Shown piece after piece: positions 27,188 through 31,869 of a DNA stretch of 64,000 nt. The stretch is from Mustelus asterias. Its lineage: Eukaryota. The stretch lies in NCBI RefSeq assembly GCF_964213995.1, contig NC_135834.1, forward strand, positions 11,222,001-11,286,000, in the 5' to 3' direction. Position 1 is the stretch's first letter. Each line of letters begins with the position of its first letter. The notes beneath the pieces are model-generated. The model worked only from the letters and a program-made list of their open reading frames with translations, was not told the origin of the DNA and made no database searches. Made by a program: the position numbers and the translations under genes.

Positions 27188-27290
27188 CCCAATCCAATCT
27201 GACTGACATCTTCTCCCGCCACCTCCTTTCTACTTCGGAACCAATGTCAATGAAAGACTAGACTAAGGCCGGCCTCCATCAATATAAAAA
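27188..27290 (+). promoter_or_regulatory. Core promoter of alpha-tubulin gene 2
   Basis: CCAATCCAAT near 27189, GC box CCCGCC, CCAAT 27241, TATAAAA 27283. Confidence 0.75.
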
Positions 27291-27408
27291 GGTGCCATCC
27301 GCCAGCATTTCGCATTCGGTTACTTACATCGACTCGTTACTGTCGGGCGAAGTAACAGTCATTATCTTTTGTAAGGTCATTTTCATCCGTATATAACTTG
27401 AAACAAAA

Positions 27409-30400
27409 ATGGTGAGTTCGCAATTTTCTCATTTAAAACAAATGTATAATCGGGCAGTCCGTATAGTTATGGTGCGAGTGACACCAAAATTACCTTTCGC
27501 AGTAAAATCCACTTTGTCACCAAAGTGATGCATTTCTTGAAGTGCAATATGCTTTGGGAATGAAAACAATGTCTCCATGAAGTAACTAACGTGGCAACAT
27601 TGTTTTTAAAAGCCAATGAGACCCAATTCACCGTTGAAATGTCATATTAAAGCTCCATGGCGCTCAATTCCCACCCCATCCTTGCCTGGAAGATAACTTT
27701 CCAGGGTGTAAACATTTTCATCGTTTGGGAAAATTCCCTAATGAATTATTTCGCTCGGCTGAAGCAGAAAATGAGTGATCTTTGTCACATCCATGTGTCT
27801 CATGTGGGGCCGCTGCTGTCTTTTGAACATGAAGTTTACCCGCGAGAATCAGAATCCGTTTTCTTCTCATCCTGCCGCTTTTAAAGCGCACCACAGAACA
27901 GCTTGAAGGGTTTATGTTTGAGTACTAAGTGCGGGAGTTTGATAGCACTCGGGTTAGCTTGAGGGTGCGCAATTTAAAATCTAGGAGCAGATTTGAGGGT
28001 GGAGGCGGCACAACAATAGTCATTTTCGCTCTAATTTAAATTGCTCCATGACTGAGCGCCCGCCGCATATAATGGCTGCCGAGCCTCATCAAGTGTTTCT
28101 GCGGTAAACCGGCTCCAGTCGTGAACCGCACCGGCCTTTGCGTCCATTCCGCGATTTTTTTTCCTTCAGCACGGTTAACTGGATTCCCGCAGAGGAATCT
28201 AGCGGCAGCTGCTACTGATGGATGGAGACAGTGCACTACAGTCTGGGTGTTAACATGGCGGACACTCTCTGGCCTGTAGGTGCCGCAGTGCACGCTGCAT
28301 TGTGGGTAGTGTAGTTCCATCGCTGCTTCCCGACGAGATGGAGAGGCGGGAGGAAACTACATCTCCCATAATCCCGTGTCCCGCTCCCTGCGCATGTGCA
28401 GCTTTCCCGACTGTAGCGCCAAGGAGCACGAGATTGTCCAAGTGTCATCTAAGAAAAGGACACGACTTCTGAGGAGCTAAATCATTCAAGAGAAACCTTA
28501 AAATTGAACATAGTCTTGTTGGAACGTGTGCAAATACTGTAGTCAGCAATTTAAAATTGCAGATCCTAATTGGCTTTTGTCATGCTCCTTGAGAGTTTTC
28601 TGTAATGTTCATTTGAAATAAGATGCAGTACAATCCACCACTAATGACTGCATTATGTTCGTTTTTTTCATCCCATAGCGTGAGTGTATCAGTATCCATG
28701 TTGGCCAGGCTGGAGTCCAGATTGGTAATGCCTGCTGGGAACTCTACTGCTTGGAACACGGCATCCAGCCTGATGGGCAGATGCCCAGTGACAAGACCAT
28801 CGGAGGTGGAGATGATTCCTTCAACACCTTCTTCAGCGAAACAGGGGCAGGCAAACATGTTCCACGAGCTGTGTTTGTGGACTTGGAGCCAACTGTCATA
28901 GGTAAGGAAGCAACATTACAGAGAAAATGCCAATTCAAATCAATTGGGAAGATAACGTATGCAATGTACTTTGGAGCTCAAAGCTTTTCAGAACCAAGTG
29001 GACCTTCATACACAGCACGCAATATATTGTAATCTGACTGTATTTGATCAATTTTGTGCCTTGTTTTCCAGATGAGGTTCGAACTGGTACTTACCGCCAG
29101 CTGTTCCACCCTGAACAGCTTATCACCGGGAAGGAAGATGCCGCCAATAACTATGCCCGTGGTCATTACACAATTGGCAAGGAGATCATTGACCTGGTTC
29201 TGGACCGAGTCCGTAAACTGGTGAGTTACATATTCAAATGATGTGATTGTAGCCTCAAAATCCTGTTTATGGGGTCTGCTCTCTCCACCTTAAATGTAAC
29301 CGGTCATCGGCAGCAATGAGAAGATCAAGTGATGGTAGAGATCTTTCCATCCATCTCAGGGTAGTTTTAACATCAATACAACATCTTTTTAGTAGTATTG
29401 CATTGGAAGAGTCAGACTAGATTAGTTGCCTCAGTCTCTGGACTGCGACTTGTAGCTTTGAGCTTCTGACTCATGGTAATTTTGTAACTACTGAACCATG
29501 GTTGTGTGTATTTTTTTAAATTGTTAACTGTATCATCGAGAAATGAACTTTGAATGACTGCTGTACGTTTGAAGTTAACTCCTCCAAATAGCATTCATTT
29601 GTTATGGATGTTACCAGACTCGTGATGCTGCTTTTGGGAAAGCACTTCTTGATGTGCTTGCTTTTTTTTATATTTGTGTCTTTACAGGCTGACCAATGTA
29701 CAGGTCTCCAGGGTTTCCTGGTCTTCCACAGCTTTGGCGGTGGCACTGGTTCTGGTTTTACATCCCTGCTGATGGAACGTCTCTCCGTTGACTATGGCAA
29801 GAAATCCAAGCTTGAATTCTCCATCTACCCAGCTCCACAAGTGTCTACTGCAGTGGTAGAACCCTACAACTCTATCCTGACCACCCACACTACCCTGGAG
29901 CACTCTGATTGTGCTTTCATGGTTGACAATGAAGCCATCTATGACATCTGCAGACGAAACCTGGACATTGACCGACCAACGTACACCAACCTGAACCGTC
30001 TCATCAGCCAGATAGTGTCCTCTATTACTGCTTCCCTCCGCTTTGATGGTGCCCTGAATGTTGATCTGACCGAGTTCCAGACCAACTTGGTGCCATACCC
30101 CCGTATCCACTTCCCATTGGCCACCTATGCACCAGTTATCTCAGCTGAGAAGGCCTATCATGAGCAGCTTTCTGTGTCTGAGATAACCAATGCTTGCTTT
30201 GAGCCAGCCAACCAGATGGTCAAATGTGACCCCCGCCATGGCAAGTACATGGCCTGCTGTCTCCTTTACCGTGGTGATGTGGTGCCAAAAGATGTCAATG
30301 CAGCTATTGCTACTATTAAAACCAAGCGTAGCATCCAATTTGTGGATTGGTGTCCAACTGGTTTCAAGGTTGGTATCAACTACCAGCCTCCCACTGTGGT

Positions 30401-30668
30401 ACCTGGAGGTGATCTGGCCAAGGTTCAGCGGGCTGTGTGTATGCTGAGTAACACCACAGCCATTGCTGAAGCTTGGGCTCGCCTTGACCACAAGTTTGAC
30501 CTGATGTATGCCAAGCGTGCCTTTGTTCACTGGTATGTTGGTGAGGGTATGGAGGAAGGGGAGTTCTCAGAGGCCCGTGAGGACATGGCTGCTCTGGAGA
30601 AAGATTATGAAGAAGTTGGTGTTGACTCCATTGAAGGGGAAGGAGAAGAGGAAGGGGAAGAATATTAA
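27409..30668 (+). CDS. TUBA1B: Tubulin alpha-1B-like chain, 451 aa; exons 27409-27411, 28679-28901, 29072-29220, 29688-30668
   Basis: ATG|gtgagt, canonical splice sites, 3/223/149/981 exon pattern; S232 and S340 as in TUBA1B; private I440. Confidence 0.93.
28060..28425. promoter_or_regulatory. CpG-rich intronic motif cluster (ZNF143/Staf x2, NRF1, YY1) in intron 1 of gene 2; copy at 50609-50974 in gene 3
   Basis: ACTACACTACCCACAATGC (- strand, ~28297-28316), ACTACATCTCCCATAATCCC (28356-28375), TGCGCATGTGCA (28389-28400), AACATGGCGG (28252-28261). Confidence 0.65.
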
Positions 30669-31087
30669 AATATTTTTCACATCACAATATGGTGCTGCTG
30701 TAACAGGGAACTAAGAAAGAAGTACAAAACATTGAGAGTTAAACAGTGAATTGTAACTGAAGATTGACTAACTTGGACTGTTCTTCAGTTTACAGTCATC
30801 AGTTACACACTGCTGCATGGTTCATGTCCATTATTGTTCATTCACCATTGGAATGATGTTTGCATTCCATACGCTCTGCTATTGCAATTTGTTTTGTCTG
30901 CCCCTTCAATTAACTTCAGTTGGCTTTAGGTCAGTGGAAGCTACTTTTTTTGTTATTTAAACTGTGATAGGAGCTAAAAATTGTGATCATCAATAGTGTA
31001 GCAACATGCATCTGAATTGAGATTGCTGTGCAGCATTGCAAATTTCTGTTGCAAATGTAACTCCTGTTCTGTCTTTATGGTGTTATC

Positions 31088-31093
31088 AATAAA
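31088..31093 (+). terminator. Probable polyadenylation signal of gene 2
   Basis: AATAAA homologous to 15035, followed by GT/T-rich sequence. Confidence 0.65.
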
Positions 31094-31869
31094 AAGATCC
31101 CTGTTGTCTTCTGCCTTGTTGCAATTTAACATTTCTTAAACAAATGTGTAAAGTGCTGTGTATACAGTATTGATTTTGGAAGTTCCATCTGGAGTATATT
31201 CATCCGGTTCTGACTTATTTTACTGCCTACCCCCAACAGTTTAGAGTTGGGAGTACTCCAGCCTTGCGTACTCCTGAAGTTTGATCTCCTTACATAAGGA
31301 AGGACATGCTCCCTCCAGAGCAGGGATGGGGAATACCCAACCTGGGAGTGCATGCTACACTCTGAACCAGCTGCTGCTATGTTCTAATGCCTAAGCCTCA
31401 GCCCCAGTCACCAGAAGTTTAGGTTGTAGGGGAGTGAGCAAGCCTTTGAGACGCGGGAGGGCAGGGCTAGAAAGCTGCAGATTGGGTGGTAAAGAGTGTG
31501 TAACTCTGGGGTAGACACCCAGATCCATTGATAGCTAACCCTCTCTCCAGCTCCTGCCTCCATTGGTACAACAGGATAGAGGCTCAGACCCTGCAGATTG
31601 AGGAACCAAGTCTGGGTGGAGGTATAGCCATGGACTGGAAGTTGGGCAGAGCCTTGGGTGGCTGTGTCCTGCTGGTTTGAAAGTGGGAAAGGTGAGGGAG
31701 ACTGACAGTGGGGAAAGGAAGTAAACTGTTGAGCTGAATAGCGGGAGTGCTGAGATTGACACACAAGTAGTGCTCATAAGGAAAAGCAAACTCAGCCACC
31801 CTATTAAACCAGTGAGTGAGCTGAAAATTTCTGTATTCTCTCAATGTGGCCTGCAACTAAATAGAAAGG

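Follow-up and report, generated by a model that had tools for sequence, protein, structure and literature searches.

A chimeric alpha-tubulin gene with a TUBA1B-type 5' part and a TUBA1A-type 3' untranslated region in the shark Mustelus asterias

Introduction

In the mammalian TUBA1A/TUBA1B/TUBA1C cluster, three nearly identical alpha-tubulin genes lie next to each other and carry distinct, conserved 3' untranslated regions (3'UTRs) (PMC6697361, PMC5648057). Mouse Tuba1a has Gly232 and Thr340 and mouse Tuba1b has Ser232 and Ser340 (PMC6697361 S7); human TUBA1A and TUBA1B differ at the same two positions, 232 and 340, and this two-residue protein difference together with the distinct conserved 3'UTRs is raised as unresolved in PMC5648057. 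The A and B 3'UTRs of mouse are described as wholly dissimilar, with the A messenger abundant in brain and lung and the B messenger (M alpha 2) ubiquitous (PMC2113702). Here we analyze three alpha-tubulin genes, numbered 1 to 3 in their order, in a stretch of 64,000 nucleotides from the genome of Mustelus asterias (NCBI RefSeq assembly GCF_964213995.1, contig NC_135834.1, positions 11,222,001–11,286,000, forward strand; hereafter the window). The middle one, gene 2, is a real chimera: a promoter, introns, and coding sequence of the TUBA1B type (B-type) are joined to a 3'UTR of the TUBA1A type (A-type).

The closest described layout is that of the anti-Lepore beta-globin genes (PMC4041002), in which a chimera lies between both parents and takes its 5' flank from the downstream one and its 3' flank from the upstream one, the coding sequence is blurred by later conversion, and all three genes may be intact, as in Canoidea. 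Gene 2 likewise lies between both parents in the same orientation; its 5' flank and introns correspond to those of the downstream parent and its 3' flank to that of the upstream one. Its status as the added copy is read from the spacers, where a duplication is represented by five collinear, window-unique remnants of only ~580 aligned bases. Gene 2 differs from the beta-globin case in that its switch comes as late as the end of the coding sequence and that homogenization has reached the introns too. Since the parent tubulins differ at two residues only, the fusion mainly recombines regulation (promoter versus 3'UTR), which is another difference from the beta-globins.

Homogenization within a lineage, with divergence peaks left at a few fixed amino acid differences, is described for the red and green opsins (PMC3924837) and for TUBG1/TUBG2, one of the mammalian gene pairs with long-lived mosaic conversion (PMC2720389). 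The window resembles these systems; however, the A and B introns are unrelated, so that between A and B only exons were exchanged, unlike in the opsin and TUBG pairs. Unequal crossover followed by conversion is a textbook mechanism, and what is new here is the alpha-tubulin gene family. In the literature that we searched, where subscription and older texts were thinly covered so that an earlier notice is possible, we found neither this chimera nor gene conversion among TUBA1A, TUBA1B, and TUBA1C described.

Results

The Two Parts of Gene 2

Self-comparison of the window and exon mapping revealed three intact alpha-tubulin genes, all on the plus strand and of 451 codons each, with GT-AG introns and exon 1 consisting of the ATG alone (Table 1). 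By their structure, they come from a vertebrate. An earlier note on this stretch had claimed that the promoter, 5'UTR, and introns of gene 2 match those of gene 3, and this holds: positions 27031–30668 of gene 2 aligned with 49598–53217 of gene 3 at 99.3% identity, introns 1–3 differed at one of 1904 bases, and the promoter with the 5'UTR differed by one substitution and a single 18-bp indel at 27358. The indel is most simply explained by a microhomology deletion in gene 3. B-type homology continues far upstream of 27280, where the span given in the note begins: strong similarity reaches 26654 and remnants reach 22937. No BLAST match was found between the promoter and introns of gene 1 and those of gene 2; global alignment gave z-scores of 1.7 for the promoter and 2.4, 2.9, and 3.9 for introns 1–3, which we attribute to the splice-site ends and to the unequal lengths of the sequences.

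The 3'UTR of gene 2 belongs with gene 1, as the note had proposed. The alignment runs from the stop codon to 31145 in gene 2 and 15093 in gene 1, slightly beyond the limit given there, with 389 matches, 79 mismatches, and 18 gaps (398, 69, and 27 under another scoring, z 29 against 40 shuffles; BLAST E 8e-74). The AATAAA signal that had been named is present and has a counterpart in gene 1; in gene 2, a TGTA word precedes it. The 3'UTR of gene 3 is indeed unrelated, with no BLAST match to either of the other two and z-scores of 0.7 and 1.5. Identical runs of at least 15 bases held 158 bases of the gene 1–gene 2 UTR alignment versus 62 in shuffles (p 2.5e-4); this blockwise conservation fits purifying selection, under which the UTR of gene 2 appears to be.

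Coding differences per 1356 bases numbered 22 between genes 1 and 2, 20 between genes 1 and 3, and 4 between genes 2 and 3. By eye, the diagnostic residues of gene 1 are those of mouse Tuba1a and the residues of gene 3 those of mouse Tuba1b (PMC6697361 S7): gene 1 has G232, T340, and the full EEY tail, as required of a TUBA1A orthologue, and gene 3 has S232, S340, and the full EEY tail, as required of a TUBA1B orthologue. Ile440 is private to gene 2 among the three genes of the window, both others having V440; the earlier note had suggested it as a discriminator.

The present switch from B to A lies within 30414–30668. The last B-diagnostic site of gene 2, at 30413, falls in codon 367, and the A-type UTR begins at 30669. 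Between these points, the last 255 coding bases distinguish gene 1 from gene 3 at one site only and gene 2 is the outlier; its last codons match neither neighbour.

Divergence Tiers and the Age of the Two Parts

Four tiers of divergence were distinguished: the spacer remnants described below (134/579), the A-type UTR (79/468), a middle tier upstream of gene 2 (5/360), and a recent tract (2/3520). Going upstream, the divergence between genes 2 and 3 climbs stepwise, from 2/3520 (27031–30568) to 5/360 (26654–27024) and 72/274 (26324–26653); in percent, the tiers are 0.06% for the recent tract, 1.4% for the middle tier, and 23% for the spacer remnants taken together. The recent and middle tiers differ significantly (p 1e-4), and the first step sits exactly at a 107-bp repeat that only gene 3 has in its upstream region. 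According to PMC3924837, repeat insertions bring conversion to a stop. Downstream, the recent tract ends around codon 419; four differences fall in the final 100 coding bases. One of the two substitutions in this 3.5-kb tract, at 27197 (49764 in gene 3), costs the gene 3 promoter its second CCAAT.

The two halves of gene 2 are of very different ages. Its introns differ from those of gene 3 at 1/1904 bases, whereas its UTR differs from that of gene 1 at 79/468 (Fisher p 5e-57), which requires a later homogenization. A single recent unequal crossover would account for the near-identity of the 5' part to gene 3; however, it predicts equally diverged halves and near-identical spacers, and most of the two spacers cannot be aligned, so that we give this history practically no credence and reject it. 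For the same reason, the near-identity with gene 3 is not the relic of the crossover that the reading in the earlier note implies. Homology of genes 2 and 3 is continuous from the upstream region through exon 4, which points to repeated homogenization, most likely by gene conversion; the pattern is observed, and conversion is its most likely mechanism.

The divergence of the recent tract (0.0006) is below the mean allele diversity of 0.002 given for one sequenced shark (PMC10587355), and therefore either conversion is current or the similarity is partly an effect of the assembly. The latter explanation, in which gene 2 is real and the 99.9% identity of the 3.5-kb tract arose in part from gene 3 reads overwriting gene 2 during assembly or polishing, draws on just this low value. 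We regard it as quite improbable, because the tract retains two substitutions and the microhomology-flanked 18-bp indel and adjoins both the repeat insertion and a graded 1.4% tier that has indels of its own; unique DNA is present on both sides of gene 2, and the older tiers are B-type regardless of the recent tract. The rate of 7e-10 per generation is a pedigree rate from another species (PMC10587355) and was not used for dating.

Paralogous Remnants in the Two Spacers

When B exons cross over with A exons, everything from the A 3'UTR through the spacer to the B 5' part is duplicated as a unit, and the two spacers are thus expected to be paralogous. Five collinear plus-strand pieces pair spacer 1 (between genes 1 and 2) with spacer 2 (between genes 2 and 3), differing at 134/579 bases; they form the four remnants of Table 1, remnant 2 consisting of two pieces that start at 22937/47259 and 22981/47695. 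These pieces have no other copy in the window, with partner scores of 50–108 and best scores elsewhere of 28–49. Repeats part remnant 2 in spacer 2 and remnants 3 and 4 in spacer 1, each in one copy alone. A symmetric tile test of spacer 1 against spacer 2 gave four unique matches, all four collinear and none on the minus strand; the other nine region/strand groups with matches had at most three matches and chains of at most two. The old tiers are of similar depth on both sides of gene 2. No homology was found between 16550–22900 of spacer 1 and spacer 2, scores being in the shuffle range, and the plus-strand matches 15330/38887, 16388/36053, and 23180/39004 were discarded as repeats with further copies in the window.

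Several observations count against a crossover origin. The matching spacer sequence amounts to ~580 aligned bases of 12 kb, about 5% of spacer 1, and the order test is modest by itself (four in order, 1 in 24). Unrelated regions also gave window-unique matches (4 tiles, 3 of them distinct, of 63, in reverse order), so one far block alone could be a dispersed repeat. A unique-looking match of 34507–34646 with 23005–23127 was out of order; it overlaps the tandem tail of a retroelement and was discarded as such. Just past the two A-type UTRs, no homology was found (local score 22, shuffle mean 23). Exon exchange among all three genes has overwritten the original breakpoint, which therefore cannot be placed. 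Finally, the mechanism is established for beta-globins, where conversion can yield the same chimeric pattern as crossover (PMC4041002); the crossover origin of gene 2 is accordingly likely and not shown.

Two other histories bear on the same evidence. In one, gene B with its upstream spacer was duplicated in tandem, and the upstream copy took the 3'UTR of gene A by a separate conversion or a one-sided invasion primed in exon 4. Paralogous spacers are predicted here too, the pattern can be mimicked as just described, and the lower divergence of the UTR compared with the spacer remnants (17% versus 23%, p 0.013) could mean a later transfer. Constraint on the UTR accounts for that difference, however, and this history needs two events and the exchange of a non-homologous 500-bp UTR; moreover, no trace of gene 3 downstream DNA was found behind gene 2 (0 unique matches in 64 tiles). 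We consider it unlikely. In the other, gene A was duplicated in tandem and the whole 5' part of the downstream copy, with several kilobases upstream, was replaced by gene B sequence. This explains the A-type UTR directly; nevertheless, it is very improbable, since the gene 1 upstream region and intron 1 form no collinear chain with those of gene 2 (3 distinct unique matches in 63 tiles, in reverse order) and B-type remnants as deep as the UTR are present up to 4.5 kb upstream, so that no A-type 5' anchor exists.

Comparison of the 3'UTRs with Mouse

The 3'UTRs were compared by eye with a published mouse mRNA alignment (PMC6697361 S9). The mouse Tuba1a UTR has a stop-proximal block of three words which, within the window, occurs only in genes 1 and 2 (2 matches; 0 in 100 shuffles), and a word after AATAAA, near the poly(A) site, is shared with both as well; the A-type 3'UTR of gene 1 thus matches Tuba1a in both features. 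The mouse Tuba1b UTR ends at AGTAAA, and the same context was found once in the window, in the UTR of gene 3. Some reservations apply: the poly(A)-proximal word is weak evidence (3 of 100 shuffles reach two matches), the likeness of gene 3 to Tuba1b consists of three short collinear words around AGTAAA picked after viewing both sequences, and shuffle counts overstate the weight of motifs chosen in this way. The match of gene 3 with Tuba1b is suggestive only.

In view of these likenesses, the tail of gene 3 is probably the ancestral B one, which would make gene 2 the derived gene. The earlier note had named the opposite case as one that would overturn its reading, namely an A-type UTR ancestral to all copies, with gene 2 a plain B gene and gene 3 having swapped its UTR. 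The shortness of the words shared with Tuba1b leaves some room for it; yet the mouse alignment disfavours it, given the rare AGTAAA signal in a Tuba1b-like context in gene 3, and the UTRs of genes 1 and 2, unlike their introns, can be aligned, over ~500 bases and beyond the poly(A) signal. This case can hardly be credited.

Other Features of the Window

Coordinates are collected in Table 1. No flanking protein gene was found in the window by a search that short exons would escape. Five long open frames were compared with Pfam: two encode reverse transcriptases and three have no family. The first, open over 536 codons, belongs to the retroelement between remnants 2 and 3, which we take to be of the CR1 type; the second is at 62398–62991. 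Spacer 2 alone contains a 4.6-kb satellite (40522–45167) with a 29-bp unit, 156 copies, and 89% matches. A palindromic repeat is situated upstream of gene 1 (7720–7947), with a partial relative in spacer 2 (48102–48230).

The small repeat upstream of gene 3 contains, at 49558–49582 on the minus strand, a core resembling a hammerhead together with a 5-bp stem, the loose core pattern matching 16 places; its relatives at 57058–57497 and 59731–59891 form palindromes. The insertion folds no better than its shuffles (z 0.58) and has no Rfam match, and the Rfam search gave 0 matches at gathering score. Our guess is that this repeat is the end of a Penelope-like element.

Table 1. Coordinates of the alpha-tubulin genes, divergence tiers, spacer remnants, and repeats in the window (counted from its first nucleotide)
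Feature	Position	Strand	Remarks
Gene 1 coding span, TUBA1A-type	10698–14543	+	G232, T340, V440; ATG 10698–10700; exons 12896–13118, 13307–13455, 13563–14543
Gene 1 A-type 3'UTR and 3' end	14544–15093	+	AATAAA 15035; would open copy 1 of the duplicated unit
Spacer remnant 1	15984–16085	+	Pairs with 46259–46356, 28/97 differ; weakest block
Spacer remnant 2	22937–23065	+	Pairs with 47259–47285 and 47695–47777, parted there by ~410 bp of interspersed repeats
Retroelement	23074–24783	-	Spacer 1, between remnants 2 and 3; reverse transcriptase frame 23176–24783 (Pfam RVT_1, E 2e-35); 7-bp tandem tail
Spacer remnant 3	24960–25074	+	Pairs with 48749–48852; adjoins remnant 4 in spacer 2; 1.25 kb between the two in spacer 1
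Spacer remnant 4	26324–26653	+	Pairs with 48838–49128, 72/274 differ
Middle tier upstream of gene 2	26654–27024	+	Pairs with 49130–49490; 5/360 differ, 3 gaps
Gene 2 tract homogenized most recently (promoter, 5'UTR, introns 1–3, codons 1–418)	27031–30568	+	Pairs with 49598–53117; 2 substitutions and one 18-bp indel
Gene 2 promoter words (candidate elements read from the sequence)	27189–27289	+	CCAAT 27189, 27194, 27241; TATA 27283
18 bp in the 5'UTR of gene 2 only	27358–27375	+	6-bp direct repeat on the flanks
Gene 2 coding span	27409–30668	+	S232, S340, I440; ATG 27409–27411; exons 28679–28901, 29072–29220, 29688–30668
Divergence islands at codons 232 and 340	Gene 1 13874–13881, 14198–14206; gene 2 29999–30006, 30323–30331	+	Synonymous A/B differences clustered
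Present B-to-A switch interval	30414–30668	+	Last B-diagnostic site 30413; A-like site 30569; private sites 30630, 30632, 30647
Gene 2 A-type 3'UTR and 3' end	30669–31145	+	AATAAA 31088; conserved stop-proximal block 30682–30709; would open copy 2 of the duplicated unit
Repeat insertion of ~107 bp upstream of gene 3 only	49491–49597		Separates the 0.06% tier from the 1.4% tier
Gene 3 coding span, TUBA1B-type	49958–53217	+	S232, S340, V440; ATG 49958–49960; exons 51228–51450, 51621–51769, 52237–53217
Gene 3 3'UTR, unrelated to those of genes 1 and 2	53218–53450	+	Candidate variant signal AGTAAA 53428, context shared with mouse Tuba1b

Discussion

Origin of Gene 2

We consider it likely that the arrangement A - B/A - B arose by an old unequal crossover of the anti-Lepore type and that gene 2 was then repeatedly homogenized with gene 3. 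Of the history proposed in the earlier note, the layout and the crossover origin are retained, as the ends of the duplicated unit and remnants of its middle survive in order. The starting point would have been a tandem pair, TUBA1A-type followed by TUBA1B-type, a step that is well supported; gene conversion would have held the coding exons of A and B nearly identical, with divergence confined to promoters, introns, and UTRs. Misaligned pairing would then have brought B exons on one chromosome together with A exons on another, and a crossover in exon 4 would have duplicated the unit of A 3'UTR, spacer, and B promoter, introns, and exons, giving the anti-Lepore layout. This crossover would be old, because repeat insertion has meanwhile led to the turnover of most of the sequence in the two spacers. 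Homogenization of genes 2 and 3 would have followed repeatedly, its tracts ending at the repeat insertion upstream of gene 3 and near codon 419, so that the last codons and the UTR of gene 2 escaped and I440 and the A-type UTR were kept.

Relation to TUBA1C

Mouse Tuba1c also looks like a mosaic with a B-type 5' part and an A-type 3' part. With labels assigned by eye from PMC6697361 S9, it agrees with Tuba1b at 17/17 informative sites in codons 8–283 and with Tuba1a at 6/6 in codons 318–450 (p 2e-5; 0.004 when neighbouring sites are counted as one). Its 3'UTR has, by eye, three short collinear words in common with that of Tuba1a.

Gene 2 was nevertheless rejected as a TUBA1C: it has S232/S340 where mouse Tuba1c has S232/T340, and its 451 residues include V440I as the only change, with a tail that is not shortened. 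Its UTR is long and clearly A-type, whereas the tail of mouse Tuba1c is divergent and of reduced length, and the A-like part of its UTR consists of short words only. In mammals, TUBA1C has the opposite orientation to TUBA1A and TUBA1B; gene 2 stands in tandem. Recent homogenization could have erased T340 in gene 2. Conversely, recent conversion alone could make the coding mosaic of Tuba1c, which renders shared descent with gene 2 less likely and a parallel origin more likely; we judge shared descent rather unlikely.

Residues 232 and 340

Of the 18 synonymous differences between A and B, six are no more than 10 bases away from one of the two replacement sites, where 0.62 were expected (p 2e-5). 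These islands at codons 232 and 340 resisted homogenization and resemble the divergence peaks described for opsins as a signature of selection against conversion (PMC3924837). By eye, V122, D220, and S289 are common to all three proteins of the window against mouse, with the A/B residues of mouse still kept, and the codon types of Leu230 and Ile231 go with the paralogue and not with the species. The mouse pair Tuba1a/Tuba1b, also viewed by eye, has an island at codons 225–233.

Selection has thus probably kept G232/T340 and S232/S340 apart against continual gene conversion ever since this lineage and mammals separated. The wider proposal, which adds to this selection that a B/A hybrid third gene is recurrent or ancestral in the TUBA1 cluster of jawed vertebrates, gene 2 and mammalian TUBA1C both being such chimeras by common or parallel origin, is possible and on balance doubtful. 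The function of the G232S/T340S pair is stated in PMC5648057 (2017) as not investigated; the islands would be evolutionary evidence that these residues matter.

Predicted Regulation and Significance

Gene 2 has an intact frame and splice sites, TATA and CCAAT words, a CpG-rich 5' end, and a poly(A) signal. It would be transcribed like gene 3, as probably a second TUBA1B-type transcription unit, and would yield a near-B protein from an mRNA whose stability, localization, and 3' end are set by A-type signals. The earlier note had spoken of a housekeeping-type promoter, a term drawn from mammalian orthologues; with TATA and CCAAT words present, "TUBA1B-type promoter" is the better wording. The ratio of observed to expected CpG was 0.64–1.03 in promoters and first introns (10200–12100, 27031–28450) versus 0.33 window-wide; such CpG richness of both promoter types is as expected of unmethylated, active promoters and does not single out gene 2 as housekeeping.

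A 7-mer in the conserved UTR block is present in gene 1 (14568–14574) and gene 2 (30693–30699) and absent from the UTR of gene 3 up to its first signal. It presumably matches the seed of the miR-15/16 family. The word is common, with 17 occurrences in the window against 13.9 expected, so a miR-15/16 site is a lead only. According to a review, miR-15a/b lowers TUBA1A in cell lines (PMC9108330).

Owing to the near-identity of the 5' tract, read mapping and the assignment of orthologues will be confounded here. The mosaic of Tuba1c and the islands at 232 and 340 may matter more than the chimera itself. Genes 2 and 3 share their promoter almost base for base and differ in their UTRs, while genes 1 and 2 share the UTR type and differ in their promoters; with this pattern, the three transcripts, followed across tissues, would separate promoter from UTR effects within one animal. 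The locus thus amounts to a natural swap experiment on why vertebrates keep both TUBA1A and TUBA1B.

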